Part shown: in pieces, positions 35,967-55,902 of the stretch
Layout: every line of letters begins with the position of its first letter
Position numbering within the stretch: position 1 is the stretch's first letter
Assembly: GCA_963711155.1 (NCBI GenBank)
Contig: CAVQDB010000003.1
Span: forward strand, 97,358-161,357
Direction: 5' to 3'
Length of the DNA: 64,000 nucleotides
Origin: an uncultured Armatimonadetes bacterium
GTDB taxonomy: Bacteria; Armatimonadota; UBA5829
The notes under the pieces: generated by a model
Database searches by the model: none
Seen by the model: the letters and a program-made list of their open reading frames with translations, nothing else
Told to the model about the DNA's origin: nothing
Program-made: the position numbers and the translations under genes

Positions 35967-38900
35967 CTAGAAGCTGAAGCTGACGCCTACGTTCGTCGTG
36001 GTATGGTCCTTAGCAAAACCCACACCAGCAGCCACAGATACGCTGCTCTCCGGTATATTGGCCTTTATTCCCAGCGCAATTGCGCTCTCTGAGTTGTAGT
36101 TGCCAAAGCCCAGACCCACGGAAGTGTTCTTTCCGGGGATAGGGTTCGGAATGGCAGCCAACGCCGCGATAGAGGCAATGCCTGAACTGAGAGAACTCTC
36201 CAGCCCATCGAGCTGGCTCTTGTTCACCGCGTCGTAAGCCGCGACACCGTTGGCTACGCCGGTAACTGTCGCCGGACCGCCCGTAACTGTGTTCCCGAAT
36301 TCAGCTCCGGCATTAGTGAGGGTCAGCGTTGTGGAGTTGGTTCCGCCGGACAGGATTGTCCGGTTCTGATTGATATAGAGACCGTGGTCCGCACCGCCAA
36401 CGGCATCGACCGTGAAACTGGCCGCCGTCCCGGCATTGTTGATCGTCAGGCCGGCATTGGCATTGCTCAGATCGATTCCGCCGGCGGTGTCAACGAAGAG
36501 CCCGGCGCCTGCATTGCCGGCGAACACGCCGGCGTCGCTCACGTCGAGGGTCTGCGTGCCATCGGCACTGACAAACCGCGAACTCGCCGCGTCAATGACC
36601 ATAGAGTTGCCTACCCCGGCGCCCGAGAAGACGGACGCACCGTTGTAGGCAGCAATCCCCGCCGCAGGCAGGGCAGCGCCGCCGACCGCAAGGACGGTCG
36701 TGTCAACGGAAGCAACGCCGCTCAGCGCGCCGGCATTGAGAGTGGCAACACCGTCGGTGATCGTTCCACCAGTAACGGTGCCGGCCGCAGTGATGTCGTT
36801 GGCGCCGGTCAGATCGCCACCAGTCAGAGTGGCTGTGCCGTCGGTAATCGTTCCACCGGTCACGGTACCGGCCGCAGTGATGTCGTTGGCGCCGGTCAGA
36901 TCGCCGCCAGTCAGAGTAGCCGTCCCGTCGGTCAAAGATCCGCCGGTGATCACGCCACTGGCGTTGATCGTGGTCGCGCCGGCAATAGCGCCGCCATTGA
37001 TCGTGGCGATACCGTCGGTGAGCGTATTACCGGTAACGGTTCCCCCTGCAGTGATGTTATTGGCGCCGGTCAGATCGCCACCAGTCAGAGTGGCCGTGCC
37101 GTCGGTGATCGTTCCACCGGTCACGGTGCCGGCTGCAGTGATGTCATCGGCGCCGGTCAGATCGCCGCCAGTCAGAGTGGCTGTGCCGTCGGTGATCGTT
37201 CCACCGGTCACGGTGCCGGCTGCGGTGATGTTGTTGGCGCCGGTCAGGTTTCCACCGTTCAGGGTGGCCGTGCCGTCGCTCAGGGATCCGCCGGTGATCA
37301 CGCCAGTGGCATCGATCGTGGTGGCGCCGGCTATAGCGCCGCCATTGATCGTGGCGATACCGTCGGTGAGCGTTCCACCGGTGATCACGCCAGTGGCAGT
37401 GACGGTTGTGCCGTTGAGATTGCCAGTGACATCGCCGGTGAGGTTGCCCGTGACATCGCCAGTGACATCGCCAGTCAGTACGCCACCCGTCAGAGTGGCG
37501 GTGCCGTCGGTGATCGTTCCACCGGTGATCACGCCAGTGGCAGTGACGGTTGTGCCGTTGAGATTGCCAGTGACATCGCCGGTGAGGTTGCCCGTGACAT
37601 CGCCAGTGACATCGCCAGTCAGTACGCCACCCGTCAGAGTGGCGGTGCCGTCGGTGATCGTTCCACCGGTGATCACGCCACTGGCAGTGACGGTTGTGCC
37701 ATTCAGATTGCCAGTGACATCGCCGGTGAGATTGCCAGTGACATCGCCAGTCAGTACGCCACCCGTCAGAGTGGCGGTGCCGTCTGTGAGCGTTCCACCG
37801 GTGATCACGCCAGTGGCGGTGACGGTTGTGCCGTTCACATTGCCGGTGAGATTGCCAGTGACATCGCCAGTCAGTACGCCACCCGTCAGAGTGGCGGTGC
37901 CGTCTGTGAGCGTTCCACCGGTGATCACGCCAGTGGCGGTGACGGTTGTGCCGTTCACATTGCCGGTGACATCGCCGGTGAGATTGCCAGTGACATCGCC
38001 AGTCAGTACGCCACCCGTCAGAGTGGCGGTGCCGTCTGTGAGCGTTCCACCGGTGATCACGCCAGTGGCGGTGACGGTTGTGCCGTTCACATTGCCGGTC
38101 AGGTTGCCGGTGACATTGCCCGTGACATTGCCCGTGACATCGCCAGTGACATCACCAGTCAGGTACACCACCCGTCAGAGTGGCGGTGCCGTCGGTGATG
38201 GTCCCACCGGTGACTGTGCCAGTGGCGGTAACGGTTGTGCCGTTCACATTGCCGGTCAGGTTGCCGGTGACATTGCCCGTGACATCGCCAGTGACATCAC
38301 CAGTCAGGTACACCACCCGTCAGAGTGGCGGTGCCGTCGGTGATAGTCCCACCAGTGACTGTGCCAGTGGCGGTGACGGTTGTGCCACTGAGGTTGCCCG
38401 TGACATTGCCGGTGAGGTTGCCCGTGACATCGCCAGTGACATCACCAGTCAGCACACCACCCGTCAGAGTGGCAGTGCCGTCGGTGATGGTCCCACCGGT
38501 GACTGTGCCAGTGGCGGTAACGGTTGTGCCGTTCACATTGCCGGTCAGGTTGCCGGTGACATTGCCCGTGACATCGCCAGTGACATCACCAGTCAGCACA
38601 CCGCCCGTCAGCGTGGCCGTCCCGTCGGTGATGCTTCCGCCGGTGATCGCGCCAGTGGCAGTCACGGTCGTGCCGTTCACGTTGCCGGTTAGGTCACCCG
38701 TGAGATCGCCGGTGAAGCCTGTAGCCGTGATCGAGCCGGTCGAAGTGGTATCGCCGATTATGCTGATCGTGCCACCACCGCCGACGTTGGCGTCAAGCGT
38801 GATGCCCACGGTTCCACTGGTGGCTACAGGATTGACGCCACTCGCATCGAGGTCCTGTGCGCCCAGACCGTCGTCAACGTTGATAGCCTGCGCCAGTACC

Positions 38901-39809: not shown

Positions 39810-40021
39810 TGTCGTGTGCCTTTCGAGAGATATGACGCGTTGTTGTCTGGTTGCCAGATGACTTATAGACTTCGGGCAGACAACCTCCCAAAGGAGCGGC
39901 AGCGGCCCCGTGAAATTCGCTCCCCATGCGACAAAGCCCGCCCGGCATCGCCGCTTCAGTGCCTAAAGCATAACCCAGCCTGAACAGTATGTCAAGTCGG
40001 AATCTTCGGGTACCGGCAGAA

Positions 40022-41033
40022 TCACCCGCCGCCGCTCGTGGCGGGCAGGGTTACGCCGGTCGCACCAATGGTGAAGATCACCTGGCGGATGGCGGAGTTC
40101 TTGCCCTCTTCGTAGTAGACGCACAATATGCGGCCGTCGGGCAGCTCGGCGAAGCCGGGATACGCCCCAATGCAGGAGTCGAGCTCGACGGGGCCCTTCC
40201 ACGTGGCGCCGTCGTCGAGGCTGTAGTGCAGCGCGGTATTGGGCAGGCGGTGGCCGACGATCAGGATGCCGCCAGAGGTCCGCAGGAAGCAGGCAGCGTG
40301 GCCCTCCCAACCGACCGGCTTCGTGTCCGTCCAGGTGAGGCCGCCGTCGTCGGAGGTGGTCTGGCACATGCACGGCCTGATCAGCGCCAGTATCCGGCCG
40401 GAGGGGAGCTGGATCATATCGGTCTCGTCGTGGGAGTGGCCGCCTGGGTTCGGGAACATGATCCGGGGCCGACCAGGTCGCGCCGTTGTCGGTGGAGCGC
40501 ACGACGCCGGATGCGCGGAAGGGCTGGCCGTCGATGGTCTTGCAGTTGTAGACGCCCAGCAGGAGCGTGCCGTCGCGGAGCTGGCGGACCTTGGCGGACA
40601 TCGCGAACCCCTTGGCGGCCATCACGGGCAGGTTGTCCCAGGTCGCGCCGTTGTCGCGTGAGCGCAGGACGTAGCTGTTCACGTAACCCGATTCCAGCCG
40701 CGTGAAGAAGCTGAGCATCACGGTTCCGTCCGCGAGCTGGGTGATGTGGGGGTCGCGGTCGTCGAGCGGCGTGTCGATCACGATATCGGGTGCGGACCAC
40801 GTCTCGCCATTGTCTTTCGATCGCATCGAGACGACTCGGCCGCCGCGGGGCAGCGCCTCGTTGGGCAGCGCGACGTGGCCGTAGCCGGCGTAGAAGACCG
40901 TGAGCAGGTCGCCGTTTGACAGCCTCGTCACGTCCGGGAAGGCCTGGTAGCCGCCCGCGCCGGCGTCGGCACAGATCACGCGTGGGCCGGCAGGCGCGGC
41001 AGCAATCAGAGCGGCAGCGAGTAGGGTCAGCAT
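40022..41033 (-). CDS. BNR-repeat sialidase-like glycosyl hydrolase; frameshift near 40450
   Basis: Repeated S.DNG.TWS Asp-box motifs (SKDNGETWS, SRDNGATWD, STDNGATWS, DDGGLTWT, DDGATWK). Confidence 0.6.
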
Positions 41034-41494: not shown

Positions 41495-42130
41495 TTACCG
41501 CCTTCGGCGTGGGCCGGCGAGCAGTCCGCCGATGCCGCAGAGCAGCGCCAGGATGGGCGCAGGTTCGGGAACGGCGCCGTATTCGACCAGATAGCCGGCC
41601 GATGGCTGCGACATCGGAGTCGTGGCAGGATACGCGTCGTTCCAGCCGGTTGGCGAGTTCGTGTACAGGTGGCAGATGATCTCCAGGTAGTCCTCAGGAT
41701 ACTTGAAGAAGGAGTCGCTGCAGTTGTTCGGCTCAGTGACTGACGAGGAAACGCCCCAGTTCGTGTAGGACCAGGCCTCGCCGGTCACCCATAGCCATCC
41801 GCCCGCGGGCTCCGAGTAGTCGGGAGCCGCTGTGTCCTGATAGCCACCCAGCCACAAGCGAAAGGACTCGGCGTACGATCCCAAGATGTTCTGGCTGATC
41901 CAGGCGTTCTCGTCCGCGGACGTTATGGTCGCCAGGTAGCCCTGCTGTCCCTGCCAGGTGCTTGAAGCAGCGGCATCTCCGGCCTCAGACCAGGCCAGGC
42001 CGGTCGTCTGGACGTACTCATACCAGTGTCCGTTACCACCCAAACCGGCTTCCCACTGGATCGGCGAGGCAATCGCGATCCCGCCCGCTGCAATCAGCAG
42101 GCAGACTGAAAGCATAGCAGTGCAGCGCAT
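41495..42130 (-). CDS. C-type lectin-like domain protein with a PEP-CTERM anchor
   Basis: Signal peptide MRCTAMLSVCLLIAAGG. CTLD-like pattern WYEY..W..A...A...GG.LATITS..EN.WI. The C-terminus is VPEPAPILALLCGIGGLLAGPRRRR. Confidence 0.6.
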   Translation of the reverse strand: MRCTAMLSVCLLIAAGGIAIASPIQWEAGLGGNGHWYEYVQTTGLAWSEAGDAAASSTWQGQQGYLATITSADENAWISQNILGSYAESFRLWLGGYQDTAAPDYSEPAGGWLWVTGEAWSYTNWGVSSSVTEPNNCSDSFFKYPEDYLEIICHLYTNSPTGWNDAYPATTPMSQPSAGYLVEYGAVPEPAPILALLCGIGGLLAGPRRRR

Positions 42131-42330
42131 GTGGTTCTCCTTCGCCCGCTTCGTGGCTTCTTGCTGCAAAATAGCATGAGACCACAGTGTTGTCAAGCCT
42201 TACTCACGGCCCCGGCGACTGAAGTCACCGCAACACAAGGGCACGAAGTCCCCCTCCGGGGACTGGGAAGTGGGTCGGCGGGGGTTGGGGCGGTCGTCCG
42301 GCGCAGAAGCGCGGGACGACCGCAGGAACA

Positions 42331-43086: not shown

Positions 43087-43267
43087 CTCGATCCCTCCAG
43101 AGTCAGATTCCCTTCCACCCTCTGGCGGCTGCGCCTGCTGGTCCGGTTGACGCTTCGTATACCGGTCAGACGGCGGGCGGCGGGGAATTGTTCCCGCGGG
43201 CACCCGGCGACTGAAGTCGCGGCAACGAAGGCGCGAAGTCCCCCCTCGGGGACTGGGGCTGTGGCGA

Positions 43268-43645
43268 TCAGTACGTCTTCTGCTGGTAGGACTCCTTGCG
43301 GAAGGCGAGGTAGCCCATGTAGATAAGGTTGACGCCGGGGATGACGATGAGGTACTTGCTCGCGTCGTCGACTCCCAGGGCGTTGGGCAGGCTGAGCATG
43401 AGATAGAGGACAACGATGCCGCCGATATACGGAACGAAGCACGCCAGGACCAGCCAGCCCGTTTGCTCGGTCATCTCGCAGAGGAGCCAGAGGTTGGCAA
43501 TCGGAACCCACGCCATCCACGCGCTGTCGTCACCCACCTTGCGCGCGATGAGATATGTGCACAGGGCGGGGTATGCGTAGACCAGCGCAATCAGCAGGAT
43601 GAACAGGAACAGACCACCGTCAGAGCTCGATTCGGGCATGGACAC
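43268..43645 (-). CDS. small integral membrane protein (3-4 TM)
   Basis: Hydrophobic segments: LFLFILLIALVYAYPAL; WMAWVPIANLWLLCEM; WLVLACFVPYIGGIVVLYLML. Confidence 0.45.
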   Translation of the reverse strand: MSMPESSSDGGLFLFILLIALVYAYPALCTYLIARKVGDDSAWMAWVPIANLWLLCEMTEQTGWLVLACFVPYIGGIVVLYLMLSLPNALGVDDASKYLIVIPGVNLIYMGYLAFRKESYQQKTY

Positions 43646-43685: not shown

Positions 43686-43740
43686 ACCCCTTTCATTTTG
43701 GATTTGGGATTTGGGATTTGGGATTTTGGATTTTGGATTG
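43686..43740. repeat. (GGATTT)n / (GGATTTT)n microsatellite
   Basis: ggatttgggatttgggatttgggattttggattttggattggg. Confidence 0.8.
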
Positions 43741-43889
43741 GGCGGGATCCGGGGGATCGCGGGATTCGCGTTTCCATGGGGGCTGGTGGGCGGGAACCGT
43801 CGTCGGTAGGCTTGTGGTTATGCTTCGGGGCGAAAGGCGAGCCCACGAAGCATAGTGAGGGCTGGACGGGCGGTTGGAGGCCGCTCCCC

Positions 43890-44265
43890 CCGGGGCGGGA
43901 GCGGCCGTTGAGGGCGGTGTGCCGAGGCATAGAACACTGTCTTTGAACAGGTTCTCAAGGTCGGCGCCACCATCCTTGCGGAAACGAGCTATCGTGTTGT
44001 GATCTGGCGCAAGACCACCGGCAAGCCAGATGAAGCGAACATCTATGTGCAAACACTCCTCAATCCTCCGGCTGCTTCGGATGCCCTTAGAATACGCGTA
44101 ACCCAAGACCTTCACCATGGTCTTCGGCGAATAGGCTGGGCAGCCCATGTCAGAGTAACGAGACTCCAGGGCTGAATAGTCCAGGTAGTCCATGACCTCG
44201 CTGAACACGCGCACGTCGTTGTCCTGCGGCAGCGCATCCTCGACACTCTGACCATACAACATCAA
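43890..44265 (-). mobile_element. IS5/IS1182-family transposase remnant: N-terminal InsH/DUF772 domain only; truncated pseudogene
   Basis: YSDMGCPAYSPKTMVKVLGYAYSKGIRSSRRIEECLHIDVRFIWLAGGLAPDHNTIARFRK. There is no DDE domain; the ORF then reads through the microsatellite. Confidence 0.6.
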
Positions 44266-44425
44266 CTGGCTCGGTGGCCATCGGCATCTCTTTGAATCGT
44301 GGCACGGCGAATCCCTCCCACAAAGGAGAATTCGCCAGCGCCCAACAATATACCTGTACGTTCACGAGTCTTGAGACAGCCTGTCAAATCCCGAAACACC
44401 GACACCGGAGATTCGGTTATGCATG

Positions 44426-46349
44426 TTACCGGGTGCAATCCGGTGGAGTCAGCATGTTCGCCAGGAGATCCCAGTCGACGCTAGAATGCCTGCCGTCTCT
44501 CGCAAGGCTGTTCCGGATCGTCTGCAAGGACTTGCGGCACCCTGCGGCAATGTCGTGGGCAAGCCGTCCAAATCGGAAGAGGTCGTGGATTCTTCGACCT
44601 TCCGGGGAAGTGTACGACGCTTCGGCTTCACGTTTCTCGTCCGACTTGATCTGTGCAACCAACGCGGCTGCCGACTGCACACCGTGAGGAAGCTCACCGA
44701 CTCGCCAAGGCCGAATCATGTTTCTGAAAGGGTCTTGCAGGCTGGTTACGATGGACATATGTTGCACATACGTGAGCTGCTTGATAAGGCGCCTCACATA
44801 GTACAGCCCTGCAGAGGTACATCTAAGGTGATAATAGCCCGGAACCTCAGCGTCAGTCAGGAAGTCCGCTGGCAGTGGCCCTTGCAGCGAATCCAGTAGC
44901 ACCGCGGCCATCAGCTTGTTAACACACTTCCGCACGGCAGGTTCCGGGTATCCGATAGTCGTAAGGGTGTCGATCACCTCGACGAGTGCGGCCTCGCCTC
45001 CCATCGCATCAATGACCGCCAGAATGCGGGGCATGCACAAGGAGTTGCAGAAATTCGTGCACAGGGTACCCGCCTTCGAATACGTTGAGGACAAGAGAGT
45101 TGTCGTCCCCGAACTCTCTTGGGTACATGTAGTCCCCGCAGATGATCGCCTCCATGAAGCTGCGCCACGATAGCCGCAGGCCATCAGCCCGATCGTAATG
45201 TGCCCTCACCATATCAGCAATCAGTTGAGTCGGAACATGTCCTGAACGCAGCGTATGCTGCAGCATGTTCAGCTGCGTGCGCACGTTCTGGGCAGAGATT
45301 GCGCAGAGCGCCTCCTCAATCTCCCGGATCTTCAGGCTTTCCAGGACTGCCGTAAGGAAATGATCGGGGCGAGTGATGTTCGCCGAGACGCGGTCAGCCA
45401 CTCTGACAGTTGTGGAGGGTGCATGTATGTACTCCGTTGCAGTGTCGGCCCGCCGCCTGAGAACAGAATGGACGTCGGGAGGAAAGAGCTCCTGGTCAGA
45501 CACGCGGTACGCGGCGGGGGCAATCCCAGCAAATGCCAGGGGCCGAGTCGTTTCCCTTACACTGAGGATCACCTTCGCTCCGGGCATCCACGAGAGCTTG
45601 TGGCAGGCGAGCTGGAGAGCCTTGTGTTGTACTTCCACGCTTGCATGGTCCAGGTTGTCCCACACCATGACCGGCTTGTATCCCTGCTTGACCAGGTAGT
45701 TGATGCGCACCCTGTTGAAGTCATGGGGGTCCTCGCGGCGTGGCTTTATGATCTCCTGCTTCTCCCGCTCCGTGTCTGCGGCAGACAGCGGGGCCCAGAG
45801 ACGAATGTAGAACAGCTTGTCAAAGTCACATTCCTCGGTCCACATATTCATGAAGTGCGGAGCGTCCTCAAGCCAGGGAACCTGCCTCCGCAGATCGGCA
45901 TGTGTACGCCGATCCACATCCTGCTCAAGGTCGTTCGGTGATACGGCCGCCTCCGCACAGTCTATGATGATCGGGATGATCTGCTTGAAAAGCTCTGGTT
46001 GCTTCTCCCGCAGGTAGACTTCGAAGAAATGCTTGATAAACGTTGTCTTGCCGCAGCCGATCGGGCCGTAGATCAGGCGAAGACTGCGGCGGCTCCCAGG
46101 GCTCTCAGACGTCAGGAACTCCATTAGCCGCCGTTCAGGGTCTTCTTCTTCCGCAAACGCGCGTGCTCTGCTGTCCCACCGCTTCGCGACATACCAGTCC
46201 TTCTGATGGTCTGCTCGTGGCACACCGTTGAAATCCTCAAACATCAGGCGAAACGCGTTGTCGTACGCATGGAATATGGGATTTCTTTCCAATCGATAGT
46301 CGCGGCCGATCTCAACGTCCGATAGGTAACGCTTCCGCTCCTCGCTCAT
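44426..46349 (-). CDS. P-loop NTPase (about 640 aa; Walker A GPIGCGKTT, Walker B VMVWDNLD) with a long alpha-helical C-terminal region; frameshift near 45100
   Basis: ORFs 45009..46538 (true start MSEERKRYL at 46349) and 44426..45184 are collinear. The composition is AT-richer (K/I/F/Y/N) than the neighbours. Confidence 0.55.
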
Positions 46350-46827
46350 TTGTGTCAACCTCCCAGCACAGGTGGCGTCGCTTCTCCACTCTGCGTGCCC
46401 CAACGTAGTAGGTGTAACGCAGTTCGATCTCATCTGCAAGGTCGGCTCCACGCTGAATTCGGGTGATAGGTATCCGCAGGAACTCGTGCCCGCGCAGGCA
46501 GTAGAGGTCGGTTGGGATCTCGTAGGTGCTGGTCTCACTACGTCTGGACACTACGCAGACAGAACTGACGCATGTCTCAATGGCACCCACGTTATAGAAA
46601 AGAAGCGTTCGCTTGCTGCTTCGCCCGTCAGCTTTGATAATGCCCACAAAACGGGGCGCAGCCTCGCGCAGGTTCATCTGCCAAGCCGAGTACACAGCGA
46701 TGCAAGCGCTAGTAGCGGAAAGTGCTAACCCGGCACTCACCTTGGATAGACCGCACAAGATGTATACGCACACTGCAACCACAACCAACAGTGCGCCAGC
46801 GAAAAGCACGGTGGTGTAGATACGCAC
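46312..46827 (-). CDS. small two-TM membrane protein with an about 120-aa soluble domain, translationally coupled (38-bp overlap) to the NTPase gene
   Basis: MRIYTTVLFAGALLVVVAVCVYILCGL..ALSATSACIAVYSAW. No family recognised. Confidence 0.5.
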   Translation of the reverse strand: MRIYTTVLFAGALLVVVAVCVYILCGLSKVSAGLALSATSACIAVYSAWQMNLREAAPRFVGIIKADGRSSKRTLLFYNVGAIETCVSSVCVVSRRSETSTYEIPTDLYCLRGHEFLRIPITRIQRGADLADEIELRYTYYVGARRVEKRRHLCWEVDTNERGAEALPIGR

Positions 46828-47008
46828 CGTCTCCTCCTCCAGATCCAGGCCTTAGCCCAGTTGCCCGGATGGTATATCCGTATTCGGAGTAGAGTCTATG
46901 AGCTTGCTAACCATTTGTACCCCATTGCTGACATATTGTCAAGGGGCAAGAGAAGCGGCCTGCAAACATGGCGTGAGTTGGAAAGAAAGGGCCCAAACGC
47001 GGCAAGAA

Positions 47009-47041
47009 ATGCCCGTTGCTTAACAGAGAAGCAACGGGCAT
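47009..47041 (-). terminator. hairpin downstream of hydrogenase operon A
   Basis: aatgcccgttgctt aacagag aagcaacgggcatt. Confidence 0.45.
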
Positions 47042-47118
47042 TCACGTGTGGGAGTGGATTCCCCGCCGGAAGGGACAGAACGACATCACTCCTCCCCAGA
47101 CGTCGATTGGGTTGGCGC

Positions 47119-48903
47119 TTACTCCACCTTCACCTTCTTCGCCTCCTCCGCCTTCGCGGTTTTGGTCGCGCGGGGGGTGTAGGTGGTGTGCAGGAGCTCG
47201 TGGCACTTGTGCGAGAGCGGTTCGCCGAGGAACTCCTCGTAGAGCTGCCTTGACGGCTGGGTTCTCGTGCGAGCTTGCGGATCGCCATTGCGCTGCGTCT
47301 TCGGCGTAGATGCCTGCGATGCGCTTTGCGCGGATCTCCTCGTTGGTCGGTTGAGGCTGGCCGCCGCCTCCGATGCAGCCGCCGGGGCAGGCACATGATC
47401 TCGATGAACGCGTAGTCCTTGAACCGGCCGCTCTTGATGCCTTCGAGCACCTCGCGAGCGTTGGCTAGCCCGTGGGCTACGGCTGCCTTGACGGGCAGGT
47501 CGCCGACTTGGATCGTCGCCTCGCGGACGCCCTCCATGCCTCGGACGGCCTCGATGTTCACGTTATCGAGGGTCCTCGCCGGTGATCATCGCGTAGGCGG
47601 TTCGCAGCGCCGCCTCCATAACACCGCCGGTGTTGCCGAAGATGACCGCCGCGCCGGTGGTGATGCCCGAACGGATCGTCGATACTCGCCGTCCTCGAGG
47701 TTCGGCAGGTCGATGCCGGCTTCCTTCATCATGCCGGCGGCCTCGCGGGTGGTGAGGACGTAGTCCACGTCCTTGTAGCCGCTGTCGTACATCTCGGGCC
47801 GGTCGCACTCGAACTTCTTCGCGACACACGGCATGATCGAGACCGAGACGATGTCCTTGGGGTCGATGCCCGCCTTCTCGGCGTAGTAGGTCTTTGCGAG
47901 CGCGCCGAACATCTGCTGCGGGCTCTTGCAGCTAGACACGTGCGGCAGACAGCTCGGGGTAGTAGTACTCGATGAACTTGATCCAGCCCGGCGAGCAGCT
48001 CGTGATCTGGGGCAGCACCCCGCCCTTGGTCACGCGCTCGATAAGCTCGCTGCCCTCCTCCATGATGGTGAGGTCGGCGGTGAAGTCCGTGTCGAAGACC
48101 TTGTCGAAGCCGAGCATCCGCAGCGCCGTGACCATCTTGCCGGTGACGCGGCTGCCGGGCGGCATGCCGAACTCCTCGCCGATGGTCGCGCGAACGGCGG
48201 GGGCGGTCTGCACGATCACGTGCTTGGTCGGGATCGTAGATCGCGTCCCAGATCTTCGGCGCGGGGTCGTTGCCCTTGAGCGCGCCGGTGGGGCAGCGGT
48301 TGATGCACTGGCCGCAGTTGACGCAGACGGCGTCGGCCAGGTCGCCGCCCACTCCGCGGCACGATGATCGAGTCCCAGCCGCGGCCCGCGCGTGCAGCGC
48401 GCCGACGCTCTGGATGTCGTCGCAGGTGCGGACGCATCGTCGCGCAGAGGATGCACTTGTCGGGGTCGCGGATGACCGAGCAGCTGGTGCGTCCATCGGT
48501 CGTAGCTTGCGCGCTCGCCCTTGAAGCGCACGTCCTGGATGCCAAGCTCCTTAGCCAGCTTCTGCAGCTCGCACTTCTGGTTCTTGGCGCAGGTCAGGCA
48601 CTCCTGCGGGTGGTTGGCAAGCATGCAGCTCGACGATCATCCGGCGCGCCTCGCGGACCTTGGGGGTGTGCGTCTGGACTTCCATTCCCTCGGTAACCGG
48701 ATAGCGCAGGCCGCGCAGAGCGTCCGCTGGCCCTTGACCTCGACCGAGCAGATCCGGCAGACGCCGTCGGGCATGAGGTCGGGGTGGTAGCATAGGGTCG
48801 GGATGTAGATCCCGGCCGATGTGCGCGGCCTGGAGGATGGTCGATCCCGGCTTCGGCGCGACAGGTCTGGCCGTTTATTTTGATGTTACTTTAGCCATAA
48901 TTG
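47119..48903 (-). pseudogene. hndD: [FeFe]-hydrogenase catalytic subunit HndD/HydA-like, operon A; at least 5 frameshifts
   Basis: N-terminal MAKVT.. 2Fe-2S ferredoxin region. HydA segments LANHPQECLTCAKNQKCELQ, TSCSPGWIKFIE, VSIMPCVAKKFE and IEIMC-LP (frame lost before GGGQP). C-terminus YEEFLGEPLSHKCHELLHTTYTPR. Confidence 0.7.
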
Positions 48904-48910
48904 TTACCTT

Positions 48911-50543
48911 TCAGCTGATCTGGTGGATGCTGAAACGTTCAGCATGACCCTCTCGCATGAGACGGCTAGCTGCAGTTGACCTCCTCCTGCGACCTTGTCC
49001 ATTGTGCAGACGCCTGCGGGGCAGGTCTTGTCCTTTAGGTGGGCCTTGTATTCCGTCCTCGAACAGCGGCAGGCTGCTCTTGAACGCGACTGCGGCGAAC
49101 TGGCCGAGGCCGCAGTTGGAGACAGCGGCCATCGTGTCGCCGAGGTGACTTCGAGAAGCTGGAGGTCGGCCTCGCTGCCCGCGCCGGCGGTCCACCAGTT
49201 GAAGTGTCTCGAGCATGCGCTTGGTGCCCTCGCGGCACGGCACGCACTGGCCGCAGGACTCGTGATAGAAGAACTGGGCGAGTTCTGCATCAGATCGACG
49301 ATGCACTTGCCCTCGTCGAGCGACGATCAGCGCGCCCGCGCCGGGGCTGAGATCCTCGCCGCAGAGCTTGCGGTCGAGCGCTTCCTCGCCGACGAGCACG
49401 CCGCTGCGGTCCGCCCATCAGCACGGCCTTGAACTTGCGGCCGCTCTTGATTCCGCCGGCCATGTTGAAGATGATGTCGCGCAGCGTGGTGCCGAACGGG
49501 ACCTCGTAGACGCCCGGGATACTGCACGTCGCCGCAGGGCGAGAAGATCTTCGTGCCCTTGCGACTGCGCGGTGCCGATGTCCGGATACCACTCCGCGCC
49601 CTTTGCGATGATGTGCGGGACGTTGGCGAGCGTTTCGACGTTGTTGATGACCGTCGGCAGCGCCCGTGAAGGCCGTAGGTCGGCGGGAACGGCGGCTTCA
49701 TCTGCGACTCGCCGCGCTTGCCCTCGAGGGATTCGAGCAAGCGCGGTTTCCTCGCCGCAGACATAGGCGCCCGCGCCCTTGAAGACCTCGATATCGAAGT
49801 CGAAGCCGCTGCCCATGATGTCGGTGCCGAGCAGGCCCATCTCGCGGGCGACGGCGATGGCGCGCTCGGTGTGCGCGACGCGACTGCTGATACTCGCCGC
49901 GGATGTAGATGTAGCCCTTGCTGCGCGCCGACCGCGTAGCCGGCGATGATCATGCCCTCGATGATCTGGTGCGGGTCGCCCTCCATGATCAGGCGGTCCT
50001 TGAAGTTGCCGGGCTCGCCCTCGTCGGCGTTGCAGACGATGTACTTGCCGTCGCCCTCGGCCTTGGAGGCGAACTCCCACTTCAGGCCGGTCGGGAAGCC
50101 CGCGCCGCCGCGGCCCTTGAGGCCGGACGCCTTGATCTCGGCGATGACCTCGTCGGGCTTCATCGTGGTGAGGGCCTTGCCGACGCGCTTCGTAGCCGCC
50201 GAGCGCGATGTATTCGTCGATGGAGGTCGGGTCGATGACGCCGATGTTCTTGAGAATGACCCGCGACTCGCGCTCCGCGCGGGTGCGGCGGCGGCCTCGA
50301 CGACCTTGGCGGCGTCGCCTTTGTAGACCAGTCGCTTGACCTGGCGGCCCTTGAGCAGGTGCTCCTCGACGATCTCGGGGATGTCGGCGACGGTGACGTT
50401 GGCGTAGGTGACGCCCTCGGGGTAGATGACCAACGCCGGGCCCGCGCCCGGCAAGCCCGAGATCGCCGGTCTCGACGACCTTGATCTCCTTGTCGAGACC
50501 CGCGCTGCTTGATCTCGTCGATCAGAGCGCTGCGAACGGCCAT
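48911..50543 (-). pseudogene. hndC: NuoF-like flavoprotein subunit HndC/HydB-like, operon A; multiple frameshifts
   Basis: [34 protein letters not shown] and HESCGQCVPCREGTKRM, spread over three frames. Confidence 0.7.
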
Positions 50544-50607
50544 CGCGCCCTTGAGAACGGCGGGGGTGCCGGTGTCAACTAATACGTGTGCTCTGTAATA
50601 ATGCCAT

Positions 50608-51122
50608 CTACTTGCCCTCCTTGCCGACGGCAACGGCGGCTCTGTATTTGGCGAGGATCGACGGGACGGCCTCGGGGGTGAGGTTGCCGTAGACGTCGTC
50701 GTTGACCATGATCGCCGGGGCGACGCCGCAGAGGCCCATGCAGCTCACGATCTCGAACGTGAAGTTGCCGTCCTCGGTGGTCTCGCCGGGCTTGACGCCG
50801 AGCGCCTTGGAGATGGCGTCGCGGATGGCCTTGCTGCCCTCGATGTGGCAGGGCGGCGAGTCGCAGAGCCTGATGACGTTCTTGCCGTGCGGCTTCAGTG
50901 TAGAAGAGCGAATAGAATGTCGCGGTGCCGTGGACACTGTCCGATCGGGACGCCCAGCTCAGCGGCGACTGTCTCCATGGCTTCGTTCGATATGTAGCCC
51001 ATCGACGCCTGAAGCTCATGGAGGATAGGAATCAGGTTGGTCTCGGCTCGGCCGCATTTCTCGACGATCTCGACGACCGCGGCCTCGCACTCGACGCAAC
51101 CATTAGAATCACTTGATCCCAC
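50608..51122 (-). pseudogene. hndA: NuoE-like 2Fe-2S subunit HndA/HydC-like, operon A; frameshifted
   Basis: VIRLCDSPPCHIEGS...IVSCMGLCGVAPAIMVND. The N-terminal part is in another frame (50895..51122). Confidence 0.65.
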
Positions 51123-51242
51123 GATTTGCCTCCGATTGTAGTTTCTTTGTTTTCAGTCATATAACATGCCGTCTGCTTTCGGCCCTCAGCGTTCAGCGGG
51201 CGGCGGGAGAATTACGAATTATGATTCACGAATCTGGCTCTA

Positions 51243-51641
51243 TCACAGCAACTGCAGCGGGCAGAAGCGCGAGATGTGCTCGAAATCCTGATCATCTGTC
51301 AGGAGAGCGCAGTTGTGTTCTATGCACGCCGCCGCAATCTGGGCGTCCACGGTCGATACCTGCACACCGTTTGCCCGGCACAGGTTTCTCAGCTCTGCCG
51401 CAGCAATGTAATCATCGCGCTTCAGTATCAGCATTCGGAAAACGTCAAGCTTGCTCTTGACCCGGTCAAAACTGCCAGAACACCTCATACCATGCAGGAT
51501 CTCCTGAAGAATGACGCCAAGAAGGAGAACAGTGTGCCCTTCGCGAAGCAGCTCAGCCACCTTGGCAGCTTGGGCATCCGGCTCGACTCCGCGACGCCTG
51601 AGAGCGTGCGACCAGACAGATGTATCGATGACGATCCTCAT
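51243..51641 (-). CDS. vapC: PIN-domain toxin VapC
   Basis: MRIVIDTSVW...LLTDDQDF, with the PIN acidic residues. It overlaps the upstream antitoxin by 4 bp. Confidence 0.75.
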   Translation of the reverse strand: MRIVIDTSVWSHALRRRGVEPDAQAAKVAELLREGHTVLLLGVILQEILHGMRCSGSFDRVKSKLDVFRMLILKRDDYIAAAELRNLCRANGVQVSTVDAQIAAACIEHNCALLTDDQDFEHISRFCPLQLL

Positions 51642-51838
51642 CGAGCGCGCCTGTCGGCCTTGTAGTCCCAGTCCGGATCGAAGTCGATTGTCCCAAACAG
51701 CTCGATGATGTCAGCCTGAGACTGCATTCTATCTAGCTGGGCTAGCGCTTCGTTGACAGCCGCCTTCTTTGTGCGAAAGCCCCCACGCTTTACAACCTTC
51801 TCCAGCAAGTCCTTGTCAATATCTATGTTGGTATGCAC
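51638..51838 (-). CDS. vapB: VapB-family antitoxin (GTG start)
   Basis: VHTNIDIDKDLLEKVVKRGGFRTKKAAVNEALAQL is a typical VapB N-terminus. The longer ORF-track start is probably upstream read-through. Confidence 0.65.
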   Translation of the reverse strand: MHTNIDIDKDLLEKVVKRGGFRTKKAAVNEALAQLDRMQSQADIIELFGTIDFDPDWDYKADRRAR

Positions 51839-51949
51839 TGCGCTCACCTCTGCACAATTATACCGCAATAGCTGCACATAATCAAGCATATTGCTGCACA
51901 TCGGTGCTTCGTGGTGTGGGGGTCGGACTCGCCCTCGGTGGTTCGGGAC

Positions 51950-53189
51950 TCACGCGTTGTCAGCGTCGGCTGCCAGTTGCCGGCGTGCAGACACGCGCAG
52001 TATCCTGTCCCTGATTCGGGCCGGCCAGTGCGGCTGCATGCACGGTTTCTCGATAGCGACAAACAGAAGCGCGCATACTACCAGTATGGGCACATACGCG
52101 ATCAATGCGAACACGGCCACGTCGATAGCCAGCAGGCCGGTCTTGGGCAGGTGAACGAGGCCGGGCATGATCGCATAGACCACCCTGCCGTGGTAGAGAT
52201 AGAGCGTGTAGCACATCCCTCCGCAGATCACAGGCAAACGCCTGGACATCAGCCAGCTCAGCGTCCTGCCCCGGAACGCTCCGATATACGCCAGCAGGAT
52301 GAGCGCCGGCACGGCAAACTCCCGATAGAAGTGAAACCACAGCACCGGCACAAGGCCGAGCCAGCACAGGCCCGAGATGATGTCCCACGTGATGCCCTTG
52401 GCCGGATTCTGCTTCCAGTCCATCAGGAACACATCCACCAGCAGAAACCCCATTAGGAAGTACCTGCATGCTGTAGACGATGCTCAGTTGAAAGTGACTG
52501 TGGAACCAGCCGCCCTTGGTGATCCAGCACTGCAGGCCACAGAAAACCGCCGCCGTGCCTACGATCGTGAGCCGGCGCGCGAGCTTCGACCGAATCATGA
52601 ACACGGTCGCGATCAGCGGCGCCAGAATGTAGAACTGTACCTCGATCTCCAACGACCACGCCACGATATTGATCGTGCTCATCGACTGATACGCTATGTT
52701 GTGCACGTAGAACATGCTTGCCAGCAGGTGCGGCACGATAGCGCCAACCGGCCTGTGCGCGATCACGATCAGCATCAACGTGAACAGAATCAGATTCGCG
52801 ATATATGGCGGTTCGAGCCTGGTCAGCCTGCGCAGGAAGTACTTGCGCAGCTTCGGCTTGGGCCGTTTGCACAGATGATGCTGCGCAAACGGCAGAGCAA
52901 GCACGAACCCGCTTATGACAAAGAACAATGGAACGCCAATCGCTCCGTTCTGAAACAGCCAGTTCCAGAACCGATTGACTCCGCCCGCCGGATTATACAG
53001 GCCGGGCGCTTTGGCCAGAAGGTCATTGTCGACGTGACACACGACCACGCACGTGACGGCGATGAACCTCAGTCCATCGATCTCTCGCACAAACTGGCCG
53101 CTCGACGTAACCCGAGACAGCTTCTCACACAGCCAGTCGCTCAACCGGCGCATTCTGCCGCCGGACTTGGCTTTCAGATCATCACTCAA
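51950..53189 (-). CDS. acyltransferase family 3 (OafA/YrhL-like membrane acyltransferase); frameshift near 52455
   Basis: REIDGLRFIAVTCVVVCHV, GVPLFFVISGFVL and multiple TM segments, over two collinear ORFs. Confidence 0.6.
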
Positions 53190-53289
53190 CGGTGGCTCCG
53201 GGGTAACAGCGTTAGTCGGTGGTTGCCAGCCATCCGAACATCCTCGATATTACCCGAAAGCCATCAGCTTTGCACAACCCCCCGTTCAG

Positions 53290-53345
53290 GTCAGATTTGC
53301 AATCTGACCTGCATAGGCAACCACGGAATCTGCGATTCCCCTCCC
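53290..53345. repeat. REP-like hairpins on the left flank of the RAYT gene
   Basis: caggtcagat ttgca atctgacctg, and ggaatc tgc gattcc. Confidence 0.6.
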
Positions 53346-53348
53346 CTG

Positions 53349-53900
53349 CTACAGTTCCAGCACATCGATCTCAAGCGGACCATCATTACGCCCGCTCACG
53401 TATACCCACGCACTTGAATACCGCCAGTGCTCCGGCAGCCAGACCAGACCCTTTCGCACCGGATTGTCGTGCAGATAACCCAGCTTCTGCACAGCAAACG
53501 CTATCGACTCAATCGTCTCCGGGTGCATGCCTGCTTGCCAAACCTTGTAGCTGCCTTCCGGTCTACCGGCCTTGCGTGCGGCATCTCTGAACACCCAATC
53601 GAACAGCCGATTTCCGTCCTCGCATAGCTGCCGCACTATCTCTTTCGCCATGTGCTTGCGCGAGTCTCGGATTATGCCGGACAGGTCGCCTCCCTCCCGG
53701 GCAGCCAGAATCGCGTGCACGTGCGTGAGCATAACGACATACGCGTGCACGAGCAGTCCCTTCTCCGCGCGACAGTACGCCAGACTGTCGGTAACGATCC
53801 GACAGTAGCGCTCCGCTGAGAACACAGGAAGCCATTCCGTCAGCGACCACGTAACGAAATGAGGAGACACGCCTCCCTCGACTATCCTGTAGCCATCCAT
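53349..53900 (-). mobile_element. REP-associated tyrosine transposase (RAYT, IS200/IS605 TnpA-like Y1 HuH transposase)
   Basis: 183 aa with the HVHAIL HuH motif and a C-terminal Y motif, flanked by inverted REP-like hairpins. Confidence 0.65.
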
Positions 53901-53914
53901 CTCTGCTTCCTCAG

Positions 53915-53975
53915 TTCCGGACGGGAATCACAGATTCCCTGATTGCCCCTGCGGGTCAGATTGCAAATCTGACCC
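53915..53975. repeat. REP-like hairpins on the right flank of the RAYT gene, in inverted orientation to the left flank
   Basis: gggaatc aca gattccc, and gggtcagat tgcaa atctgaccc. Confidence 0.6.
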
Positions 53976-54019
53976 GAACCATGAGACTGCAGCCCTGACC
54001 GAACATGAGCCCTCTGCTC

Positions 54020-55882: not shown

Positions 55883-55902
55883 TACTCGTCCTCTTCGAGC
55901 TT

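Follow-up and report, generated by a model that had tools for sequence, protein, structure and literature searches.

In the 64,000-nt window analysed here (the whole stretch of DNA, taken from a contig of an uncultured Armatimonadetes bacterium), three minus-strand features lie together in an islet of low G+C content: a fragment of an IS1182-family transposase, a gene for a P-loop ATPase (gene B) and a small gene for a protein with two transmembrane (TM) helices (gene A). What might such a coupled pair of a membrane protein and an ATPase do? A preliminary description, made from the sequence alone, had proposed a defence-like module without being able to name it. Our comparisons indicate that the pair matches no named system, and the sequences of its relatives and neighbours point to anti-phage defence. 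The features to which we refer are these:

43695..43739, no strand: tandem array (ATTTGGG) x 6.4 (TRF: period 7, 94% matches), left edge of the islet
43930..44250, minus strand: N-terminal fragment of an IS1182-family transposase, about 23% of the full transposase, inside ORF 43693-44265
44426..46349, minus strand: gene B, ORC/Cdc6-like (STAND-like) AAA+ P-loop ATPase, 640 aa after removal of one extra base
44819..45049, minus strand: winged-helix domain of gene B, residues 434-510, encoded after the frameshift (predicted structure)
45050..45053, minus strand: one-base insertion in TTTC, between F433 and C434 of gene B (three-frame translation)
45648..45671, minus strand: Walker B of gene B, VMVWDNLD, residues 227-234
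46041..46067, minus strand: Walker A of gene B, GPIGCGKTT, residues 95-103
46312..46827, minus strand: gene A, small membrane protein, 171 aa, GTG start, ORF with GGAGGAGGAG ribosome-binding site
46678-46731, minus strand: TM2 of gene A, residues 33-50, conserved and Ala/Ser-rich (hydropathy, family alignment)
46750-46815, minus strand: TM1 of gene A, residues 5-26 (hydropathy)
46914..46942, minus strand: weak promoter-like site of the gene pair, TTGACA, 17 nt, TACAAA (read by eye)
47008..47042, minus strand: candidate terminator hairpin, perfect 14-bp inverted repeat, 100% complementary, with a 7-nt loop, then TTTCTT

Composition and borders of the islet

A GC window analysis bore out the low-GC islet of the preliminary description: it forms the lowest-GC 3 kb of the entire window (0.567-0.569 vs. 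a window mean of 0.622, sd 0.019), and the GC3 of its genes is 0.62-0.69, compared with roughly 0.68-0.87 in the flanking ORFs. The accompanying claim that K/I/F/Y/N-rich proteins stand here against Ala/Arg/Gly-rich neighbours did not hold. Both proteins fall inside the range of ten other ORFs of the window, for K+I+F+Y+N (18.7-19.1% vs. 11.9-24.0%) as well as for A+R+G (22.8-27.5% vs. 17.6-33.1%). The compositional shift resides in the third codon positions and in a low Gly+Pro content.

At the left edge, the tandem repeat had been read as a (GGATTT)n tract; a repeat is indeed present, with a unit of seven nucleotides rather than six, and it is unique within the window (five overlapping matches in a pattern search vs. 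0.17 expected). The transposase beside it is truncated, as had been noted: it matches Pfam DUF772 (5.7e-18) and NCBIfam NF033551 (5.4e-27), the latter over profile positions 12-126 of 488 and with 94.8 bits vs. a cut-off of 270. A full-length match that included the DDE catalytic domain was not obtained, so that only a fragment is present and no functional transposase, and the remainder of its ORF is out-of-family sequence. At the right edge, the hairpin is likely the terminator of the upstream hydrogenase gene. The promoter-like site was missed by a consensus promoter scanner because the scanner demands a T as the sixth base of the -10 hexamer. Direct and inverted repeats were sought in the flanks as possible ends of an element, with matches at chance level only; an Rfam scan of 42.5-47.5 kb returned nothing, and no tRNA genes were found as an integration site.

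The frame change in gene B

A frame change had been suspected at 45100. It is real in the sequence, but it lies at 45050-45053, where the junction reads CAC GAA TTT C followed by TGC, that is, HEF followed by CNSLCMPRIL; homologues read HEF- or PAF-CNSLCMPRIL straight through. Gene B is a single gene split by this change, and its halves are otherwise intact and stop-free. Once stitched, the 640-aa protein can be aligned almost entirely (98-100% of its length) with five homologues of 643-656 aa, to which it is 49-51% identical; for a sixth homologue, truncated at the N terminus, the figures are 93% and 47%.

Is the break a property of the organism or of the assembly? Housekeeping genes in the window are also broken: Fe_hyd_lg_C is split into 1-91, 95-187 and 190-236, Complex1_51K into 1-73 and 84-150, and a second hydrogenase operon is likewise split by frame breaks. 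Because these nearby hydrogenase genes are frameshifted too, the one-nucleotide error in gene B is most likely an assembly indel. We consider it unlikely that the window carries a decaying remnant, with a genuine frameshift in a gene that is dying beside a dead IS. The broken frame itself would suit such decay, as would the public annotation of the contig, which calls just the 446-aa N-terminal part (P0001), the truncated IS next door and a homologue at locus L008 that is split as well. However, assembly indels explain more simply why conserved housekeeping genes show the same breaks, and decay accords poorly with two halves that lack stop codons and retain about 50% identity to the very end.

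Motifs and fold of the ATPase

Both nucleotide-binding motifs recognised at the outset are present, and their key residues are conserved across 56 relatives. In Walker A, G98, G100 and K101 are invariant; in Walker B, which has D-N-x-D and not D-E, D231 is invariant and N232 and D234 are conserved in at least 90%. A conserved Arg follows strand 4. We predicted the structure with AF2 from the 56-sequence alignment; this model replaced an earlier one made from 8 sequences (pLDDT 65, poor at residues 277-420). The predicted protein comprises an N-terminal region (1-85), a P-loop core (about 86-275), a lid or helical region (about 290-405), a winged helix (434-510) and a helical bundle (512-632). 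Within the winged helix, the secondary-structure elements follow one another as H-E-H-H-E-E, and 10-residue blocks have pLDDT values of about 87-98. The C-terminal region had been described as roughly 350 helical residues; helical parts do exist, but "helical" is too simple a term for a succession of lid, winged helix and bundle, in which the region after the lid (winged helix plus helices) accounts for about 200 aa.

In Foldseek, the model's alignments to ORC/Cdc6 chains extend over about 475-570 columns, and these chains, too, have a winged helix at their end. The general features of AAA+/STAND-type P-loop proteins are in place (Walker A GxxxxGK[ST], Walker B hhhhD, a five-stranded core and a helical lid), and the fold and motifs thus support the original assignment to the AAA/STAND-like NTPases.

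Sequence profiles yielded no such placement. No family could be assigned to either protein from Pfam, NCBIfam, PADLOC or PHROGs, and no Pfam or NCBIfam cut-off was reached. For gene B, the Pfam scores and cut-offs were 25.6/27 (AAA_22), 23.1/33.2 (ATPase_2), 20.5/32.6 (AAA_16), 19.1/26.7 (NACHT) and 14.7/34 (nSTAND5), with nSTAND6 also sub-threshold. PADLOC returned only mad8 (E 0.0097) and PDC-S53 (E 0.021) for the ATPase, both in the P-loop region, and nothing for gene A at E <= 1; the early impression that the pair fits no named system therefore stands. A PDB sequence-profile search with gene B produced P-loop noise only. The sole significant family match of the ATPase is PHROG 14719, of unknown function.

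The small membrane protein

The two N-terminal TM helices first described for gene A were both found, although the second is merely moderately hydrophobic. They are followed by a beta-rich domain of about 120 aa, which the charge distribution predicts to be cytoplasmic. Ten positions are invariant in the family alignment: S40, A41, A44, Y46, W49, K72, N79, G81, A82 and P120. In neither Pfam nor NCBIfam did the protein reach a family cut-off. Profile searching of the PDB found nothing beyond a chance match (E 0.44) and no Cap15 at E <= 10, and a word-index search returned gene A itself only.

Conservation and setting of the pair

The ATG of gene B, at 46349, sits 38 nt inside the 3' end of gene A, and both genes have GGAGG-type ribosome-binding sites. 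Homologous pairs overlap or abut in the same manner, which upholds the proposed translational coupling. A gene A homologue lies directly upstream of the ATPase gene in 8 of 11 subfamily loci (the window, L001, L006, L007, L008, L009, L010 and L014), down to the 30% ATPase identity of L014. A similar ORF with two TM helices and a beta domain occupies the same position in L027 (24-26% ATPase identity) and also in L022. The divergence of gene A is correlated with that of gene B (r = 0.69). In L003 and L011, both close loci, the ATPase occurs but gene A does not; gene B can thus exist alone.

The module's GC content is below that of its flanks in eight of eight loci, and its close homologues come from two phyla or more (Phycisphaerae and Armatimonadota). 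Together with the GC minimum and the adjoining IS fragment, these findings sustain the view of an accessory, horizontally acquired islet. The close family is very rare and patchy, with about 10 close members from unrelated phyla among 5.8 billion clusters. In the genome collection, close homologues were present in two Lac Pavin MAGs only, and none was found in viral contigs or in the phage record collection.

About a dozen gene contexts were seen, and a statistical defence score is not computable from so few. Some of the genes next to the pair or its relatives support a defence role indirectly. Dsr1 (PADLOC 6.7e-76) is such a neighbour in L014, MntA/HepT in L006, a type I R-M system and IS66 on plasmid CP049030, RelE/ParE and a recombinase on pP51_d, and DUF4238 in L022; integrases are nearby in L003, L007 and L009. 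On the other hand, several neighbours are housekeeping genes (UvrA, TyrRS, LeuA-like, 6PGD). No third gene or pathway context is conserved across the homologous loci.

Effector exchange among distant relatives

Beyond the close family, the ATPase belongs to a superfamily of more than 1,000 cluster representatives (roughly 1,168), the best 150 of which were used for the effector counts. Applying the criteria of Lee et al. 2026 (PMC13581612), we found nuclease or phosphoesterase N-terminal domains in 64 of these 150: a fused PD-(D/E)xK/HSDR_N domain in 62 and Metallophos in 2. By the same criteria, Dsr1, R-M and TA neighbours appear in a handful of loci, too few for a statistic. The 62 N-terminal domains (about 300 aa) are mutually homologous by BLAST clustering, and 61 of them have a D...(E/D/Q)xK motif, typically EAK. 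All three nuclease-fused relatives tested match Pfam HSDR_N or HSDR_N_2; a jackhmmer search from one N-terminal domain found nothing. The two Metallophos relatives match PADLOC PDC-S60 and "Effector endonuclease" and, in part, the NCBIfam anti-phage families DS8 and DS9_1. These fused effectors lie on the N-terminal side of the ATPase, and gene A has the corresponding place in the window. At L026, the stop of the ATPase gene is overlapped by an independent ORF that has a D..ECK motif. Other additions are a C-terminal cold-shock nucleic-acid-binding domain in one plasmid relative and a TPR plus a peptidoglycan-binding domain in the distant relative P0018.

The HsdR-N-domain ATPases of about 800 aa that make up PHROG 14719 (e.g., WP_102856471.1 from the Phaeobacter plasmid pP51_d) are homologous to the window ATPase across ATPase, lid, winged helix and bundle (18-22% identity, profile E-values about 1e-18 to 1e-30). 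Unlike it, each has a PD-(D/E)xK domain (about 300 aa) fused to it. PHROG 14719 finds both the nuclease-fused relatives (2e-82) and P0003 (1.5e-26). When the A-family profile was run over eight distant-relative loci, seven of them nuclease-fused, no gene A homologue was detected upstream.

Comparison with known systems

By its predicted fold (AAA+ core, lid and C-terminal winged helix), gene B belongs with the ORC/Cdc6 family. By sequence it does not: identity to archaeal Orc1/Cdc6 and eukaryotic Cdc6, Orc1 and Orc4 is 10-16%, and TIGR02928 scores 15.5 bits vs. a cut-off of 181.3. These proteins have D-E in Walker B, whereas the window ATPase has D231-N232, and the latter is extended by 85 aa at the N terminus and by a helical bundle of 120 aa at the C terminus. 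The window gene is, moreover, bacterial; it lies in an accessory islet, has a membrane protein as its partner and shows no replication context. Within the ORC/Cdc6 clade, BrxC of the BREX systems has been described with a winged helix after the AAA+ core (PMC12839542); it is a protein of 1200-1300 aa with further domains, compared with 640 aa here. Neither of the two window ATPase ORFs matched BrxC in PADLOC, and PglZ, PglX and BrxA/B were absent from the Pfam-scanned flanking ORFs (about 36-53 kb) and from the gene calls of the homologous loci, which places the pair outside BREX.

Avs and bNACHT proteins share with the module a common logic, a nucleotide-switch core between a variable effector and a recognition part, and Avs proteins have N-terminal nuclease or phosphoesterase effectors, as do relatives of the window ATPase. 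In our own reading of published motif definitions, the D-N-L-D of Walker B and a "VR" after strand 4 resemble NACHT/NB-ARC. However, they score below ORC/Cdc6. No Avs model in PADLOC was matched, and in place of a C-terminal sensor of at least 400 aa there are about 200 aa after the lid. Where Avs proteins have a large repeat sensor and a fused effector, the window has a winged helix and helices (end part about 130 aa) and, presumably, its effector in a separate gene.

The CBASS effector Cap15 has two TM helices and a small beta domain, and it kills once a ligand has induced it to oligomerise in the inner membrane (PMC10419184). Gene A appears to be alike in architecture, with its pair of TM helices at the N terminus and small, beta-rich, putatively cytoplasmic domain; compared by sequence, it has no detectable similarity to Cap15. 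With no Cap15 match, and no cyclase among the Pfam-scanned flanking ORFs of the window, gene A was not assigned to CBASS or Pycsar.

The TnsC/TniB/MuB regulators differ from the window pair in having a partner transposase: no rve-type transposase adjoins the pair in the window or in the homologous loci, and matches are sub-cut-off (TniB 14.1 vs. 22.4 bits). Nor is the window ATPase's combination of winged helix and C-terminal bundle what one would expect of these regulators, and the same goes for its membrane partner and its nuclease-fused relatives. A functional link of the ATPase to the IS, in the manner of TniB/TnsC, was rejected, as the IS is an IS1182 fragment and the homologous loci have no transposases. 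The IS1182 family is not known to need an AAA+ helper.

A proposed function for the pair

With evenly divided confidence, we read the islet pair, from its sequence, as an unnamed two-gene abortive-infection (anti-phage) module that consists of a sensor ATPase and a membrane effector. The proposal builds on the anatomy and fold of the pair, its conservation, the effector-swapped relatives and the accessory context. Gene B would be a cytoplasmic, ATP-dependent switch, with the lid, winged helix and short bundle recognising an invader cue, which may be a nucleic acid or a protein. Gene A would be the effector: an inner-membrane, N-in protein whose two helices form a hairpin that packs through a conserved face of small residues, and whose beta-rich domain lies in the cytoplasm. 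Once the cue was bound, ATP-bound gene B would oligomerise, and its subfamily-specific N-terminal 85 residues would engage the cytoplasmic domains of gene A. The TM hairpins would be clustered in consequence, and the membrane would be depolarised or permeabilised, such that the infected cell would stop supporting phage growth. By analogy, an effector role for gene A gains support from its position, which nucleases or phosphoesterases occupy in relatives, and from its Cap15-like architecture. The short C-terminal "sensor" (about 130 aa), unlike that of typical Avs, counts against the proposal, as do the sub-cut-off profile matches, the two close loci that have the ATPase alone, the housekeeping neighbours, the lack of close homologues among the viral contigs and phage records searched, gene A's lack of sequence similarity to Cap15 and the frameshift of the window copy.

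Could the roles be reversed? Gene A would then be a sensor or anchor that responds to membrane perturbation or DNA injection, and gene B an executor that binds invading DNA through its winged helix and then blocks or marks that DNA. We judge this version of a defence module improbable. The winged helix does follow the AAA+ core as in ORC/Cdc6 and BrxC, and ORC/Cdc6-like ATPases such as BrxC, by analogy, scaffold DNA-directed defence; gene B without gene A in two loci, the cold-shock domain of the plasmid relative and the lack of a recognisable toxic domain in gene A are also compatible with it. Yet it is effectors that relatives place at gene A's position, the ATPase is the sole catalytic domain of gene B on its own, and small TM proteins coupled to cytoplasmic sensors, Cap15 among them (PMC10419184), act as effectors.

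It is decidedly improbable that the pair serves the maintenance of a mobile element, with gene B as a TnsC/TniB/MuB-like target selector or as an ORC-like replication initiator of an integrated element, and gene A as an accessory membrane protein; the IS fragment and the integrases would then be traces of that element. The weak Pfam matches to AAA_22 and TniB and the integrases or IS elements near several loci would agree with such a role. Against it, no locus has a cognate TnsB/TniA/MuA-type transposase with the pair, the sole transposase being the IS1182 fragment; TniB and TIGR02928 (15.5 vs. 181 bits) stay below their cut-offs, no flanking repeats delimit an element, and nuclease or phosphoesterase fusions are unexpected for target selectors or initiators.

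As for an ATPase that works at the membrane in housekeeping or regulation (an ExeA/GspA-type envelope factor or a MalT-like STAND regulator with a membrane partner), we regard it as very unlikely. In its favour, AAA_22 and AAA_16 are the best, sub-threshold Pfam matches, MalT is among the Foldseek matches, P0018 carries its TPR and peptidoglycan-binding domains and some of the adjacent genes are of the housekeeping kind. However, members of the family are extremely rare and patchily distributed, the module's GC is always below that of its flanks, no third gene or pathway context is conserved and nuclease-fused relatives dominate.

Returning to the sensor-ATPase and membrane-effector module, its wider placement is a matter on which we would lean slightly towards doubt: the pair may found a family of anti-phage systems that has no name as yet, one in which an ORC/Cdc6-like sensor, separate from Avs, BREX and the PADLOC candidates, exchanges effectors. 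Held just as tentatively, the effector in such a family would be a fused nuclease in most members, Metallophos in a few, and a separate Cap15-like two-TM protein in the subfamily of the window.

The practical value of the finding is probably modest, as many candidate systems of like logic exist and the close family, so far as its sequences tell, is very rare. Provided that the pair does function in defence, it would add a new sensor lineage to bacterial immunity, structurally between ORC/Cdc6, BrxC and the NLR-like STANDs. It would also provide an effector-swap series (membrane protein, nuclease, phosphoesterase) on one conserved ATPase-winged-helix chassis, which would help one to ask how immunity came to employ ORC-type ATPases and by what means a soluble switch turns on so minimal a membrane effector. 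Should the pair indeed be the founding example of its family, PHROG 14719 and the rest of the superfamily (more than 1,000 representatives in all) would amount to a widespread, hitherto unrecognised defence lineage.

Layout and composition of the islet

The low-GC islet carries, on the minus strand, a gene for a membrane protein with two transmembrane (TM) segments (A), a P-loop ATPase gene (B) and a transposase remnant. The features of the region are as follows (window coordinates).

43268-43645: native DUF5684 gene, left neighbor of the islet
43695-43739: heptamer array (ATTTGGG) x 6.4, closing the islet between the DUF5684 gene and the transposase fragment
43693-44265, minus: ORF with an IS1182-family transposase fragment in its first ~112 residues, 160 nt past B
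46349 (ATG, 38 nt inside A) to 44426 (final stop), minus: B, P-loop ATPase gene
46312-46827, minus: A, 171-aa ORF with a GTG start and a GGAGGAGGAG ribosome-binding site
46914-46942, minus: promoter-like TTGACA-17-TACAAA site, read from the sequence
47008-47042: hairpin, the likely terminator of a hydrogenase gene and right border of the islet
47130-50454 and 54748-58769, minus: two [FeFe]-hydrogenase/NuoF-like operons with many frame breaks

A preliminary description of this islet was largely right but needed three corrections, which concern a repeat, amino-acid composition and the position of a frame change. The ORF past B does contain a truncated transposase: it matches Pfam DUF772 (5.7e-18) and covers only positions 12-126 of the 488 in NF033551 (94.8 bits vs. 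a cut-off of 270). The adjacent repeat, reported as (GGATTT)n, is instead the heptamer array, which is unique in the window. A window analysis bore out the GC deviation: no other 3-kb stretch has a GC as low as the islet (0.567-0.569 vs. a mean of 0.622, sd 0.019), and its GC3 is 0.62-0.69, compared with roughly 0.68-0.87 in flanking ORFs. The module also lies 2.5-8.6 GC points under its flanks in all eight loci where this was measurable. The proteins themselves, described as K/I/F/Y/N-rich against Ala/Arg/Gly-rich neighbors, fall within the range of ten other window ORFs (K+I+F+Y+N, 18.7-19.1% vs. 11.9-24.0%; A+R+G, 22.8-27.5% vs. 17.6-33.1%). An Acyl_transf_3 gene (51960-53189) lies in a second low-GC stretch (50500-54000; 0.572-0.58 in 3-kb windows), possibly a further accessory islet.

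The interrupted reading frame of B

The first frame of B encodes 446 aa before a stop at 45009, and a second frame runs on to the final stop. Stitched between HEF and CNSLCMPRIL, the protein has 640 aa; 98-100% of its length aligns with five homologues of 643-656 aa (49-51% identity) and 93% of it with a sixth homologue that is truncated at the N-terminus (47%). The homologues read uninterrupted through the junction. B is therefore a single gene carrying an extra base at 45050-45053 (TTTC), and not at 45100, where the frame change had been placed.

Conserved housekeeping genes of the window are broken as well. In the first hydrogenase operon, the Fe_hyd_lg_C profile is split over three ORFs (1-91 / 95-187 / 190-236); the Complex1_51K profile is divided 1-73 / 84-150; and the second operon (54.7-58.8 kb) is also split (Fe_hyd_lg_C, 1-36 / 36-110). 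These breaks point to pervasive indel errors in that region of the assembly or, less probably, to true decay. An assembly indel is thus the simplest explanation for B as well, and we do not read its break as pseudogenization; that it is genuine seems unlikely. Elsewhere in the window, a BNR/sialidase-like gene (39963-41033, minus) reads well for ~190 residues and then passes into Arg/Pro-rich out-of-frame sequence, probably another frame error. Two homologous modules from public assemblies are interrupted too: the ATPase of L008 (115-2157) is split at residue ~168, and the membrane gene of L007 (1718-3983) runs into the ATPase N-terminus. Either such genes decay frequently, or those assemblies also contain indels.

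B is an ORC/Cdc6-like ATPase

The earlier failure to match the module to a named system held up. B has no curated family in Pfam, PADLOC or NCBIfam. In Pfam, AAA_22, ATPase_2, AAA_16, NACHT and nSTAND5/6 all remained under threshold; PADLOC returned P-loop-level noise only, and NCBIfam nothing useful. The close family is small: when 5.8 billion protein clusters were searched by word index, only 10 members came up, the window's own included, and two of these derive from MAGs of Lac Pavin sediment (one Phycisphaerae, one Armatimonadota). Searching 1.84 billion representatives exhaustively with a profile yielded 1,168 proteins at E <= 1e-3, 493 at <= 1e-10 and 52 at <= 1e-30.

An AlphaFold model of B (56-sequence alignment; pLDDT 91.3, pTM 0.90) comprises the following regions.

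Residues 1-85: N-terminal region
Residues ~86-275: P-loop core
Residues ~290-405: lid with a beta-hairpin
Residues 434-510: winged helix
Residues 512-632: helical bundle

Foldseek retrieved ORC2 with this model (7e-6), with NOD2 and MalT lower in the list. Six residues are invariant in the superfamily (G98, G100, K101, D231, R300, Y527), and a further five (N232, D234, R265, R357, N422) reach at least 90% conservation. Judged by motif definitions in the literature, Walker B (D-N-x-D) and the Arg that follows strand 4 appear closer to NACHT/NB-ARC than to ORC. We therefore class B as an AAA+ ATPase that is ORC/Cdc6-like but has STAND-like motifs, and assign it to no named family.

The membrane protein and its pairing with B

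A matched nothing in Pfam (DUF6338, 14.7 bits vs. 26.5), PADLOC, NCBIfam, PHROGs or the PDB, and a word-index search recovered A alone. A profile built from locus translations did detect homologues. They lie immediately upstream of the ATPase gene in L001, L006, L007, L008, L009 and L010, and the same holds in L014 (E 1.4e-9; hhalign probability 90%, E 1.5e-6), despite an ATPase identity of just 30%. The described coupling of the two genes is conserved: they overlap or abut in every locus that has both. In two relatives more distant still, L027 (24-26% ATPase identity) and L022, an ORF of 177-178 aa with 2-3 TM segments and a beta-rich domain occupies the same position; these ORFs share an hhhhxNxGxxxT-like motif, their similarity not being significant (E 0.043 and 0.076). 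Three close-subfamily loci (L003, L011, L026) lack an A homologue, and the same profile found none upstream in eight more distant loci (seven nuclease-fused, one not).

TM1 of A (residues 5-26) is strongly hydrophobic; TM2 (33-50), rich in Ala/Ser, is the most conserved segment, S40, A41, A44, Y46 and W49 being invariant. Because the inter-TM loop is acidic and the segments preceding TM1 and following TM2 are basic, the 120-aa C-terminal domain is predicted to be cytoplasmic. A diverges faster than B (14-39% vs. 26-55% identity), and their divergence is correlated (r = 0.69, over pairs that are not independent).

Relatives of B with other putative effectors

Among the best 150 representatives from the profile search, two main architectures occur: B-like proteins of ~600-700 aa, and proteins of ~800-870 aa whose ATPase starts near residue 300. 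Of the longer proteins, 62 have N-terminal domains that cluster together as homologues. A D...(E/D/Q)xK motif, usually EAK, is present in all but one (61/62), and all three tested matched HSDR_N or HSDR_N_2 in Pfam; by these motifs and matches, the domains are classed as PD-(D/E)xK nuclease-like. PHROG 14719, whose function label in PHROGs is unknown, is this nuclease-fused form (2e-82). Metallophos domains occur in two relatives; in PADLOC these domains match PDC-S60 and 'Effector endonuclease', and in NCBIfam they partly match DS8 and DS9_1, both anti-phage models. One other has TPR and peptidoglycan-binding domains, and a plasmid copy an extra C-terminal cold-shock domain. In L026, a 256-aa ORF (2556-3326) with a PD-(D/E)xK-like D..ECK motif overlaps the stop of a 35%-identical ATPase (P0011). 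It has no credible Pfam match (best E 0.003, below cut-off), and the 378 nt available upstream of the ATPase hold no membrane gene; the ORF may be a candidate nuclease effector acting in trans.

Genomic neighborhoods

The following genes were found next to the various loci.

L014, 3434-6931, minus: Dsr1 homologue (1165 aa, SIR2_2 + DUF4020; PADLOC 6.7e-76), convergent with and adjoining the membrane-protein/ATPase pair
Plasmid CP049030: type I R-M system and IS66
L006: MntA/HepT
pP51_d: RelE/ParE and a recombinase
L003, L007, L009: integrases, with or without an excisionase-like HTH_17 gene
L022: DUF4238, which we take to be a named phage-satellite hotspot defense gene
Several loci: housekeeping flanks (UvrA, TyrRS, LeuA-like, 6PGD)

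The defense context looked for was found at some loci, and several loci have housekeeping flanks. No third gene is conserved beside the pair in the loci compared.

In the window, a 57-nt element occurs in two copies 992 nt apart (42211-42267 and 43203-43257; 85-92% identity), with no others (0 expected by chance). The element, which in both copies lies directly downstream of a minus-strand gene and includes a palindrome of the GGGGACTTCG type, may be REP-like or a terminator. Two host genes, for a YadA-anchor autotransporter (35967-38171) and for a C-type-lectin protein whose tail is PEP-CTERM-like (41495-42196), are of a kind typical for Planctomycetota/Verrucomicrobiota-like organisms.

Interpretation

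The proposed defense-like reading survived all in-silico tests run. The pair is coupled and conserved, nucleases or phosphoesterases take A's position in relatives, the switch fold is ORC/BrxC/NLR-like and the context is accessory; taken together, this suits a conflict module of a sensor ATPase and an effector, and we put the chances of such a defense module about even. A comparison of BREX-related systems notes that ATPases of the ORC/Cdc6-like type recur in anti-invader systems along with wHTH domains that evolve fast and with effector nucleases (PMC12839542), and a STAND survey called clades defense-associated by just two such criteria, effector domains and defense neighbors (PMC13581612). 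Beyond the anatomy of the pair, which is shown, the mechanism we favor infers a trigger, an A-B contact and a phenotype: the winged helix and bundle of B would recognize a cue, B would oligomerize in an ATP-dependent manner, its subfamily-specific N-terminal region would engage A, and the TM hairpins of A would cluster and cause membrane failure like that described for Cap15 (PMC10419184).

The roles might be reversed, with A sensing and B acting on DNA, which we consider improbable. A transposition or replication helper fits worse, as no locus holds a partner transposase or origin and every relevant family model is under threshold. A housekeeping or regulatory ATPase also fits worse, being at odds with the rarity, patchy distribution, low GC and effector fusions.

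Many candidate systems follow such logic, the close family has very few members and the window copy may be broken. NTPase-switch conflict systems with membrane effectors are an already known kind of module, and this one belongs to no named family. Its attraction lies in a series of effector swaps on an ORC-like chassis and in the tie to a large unannotated superfamily.
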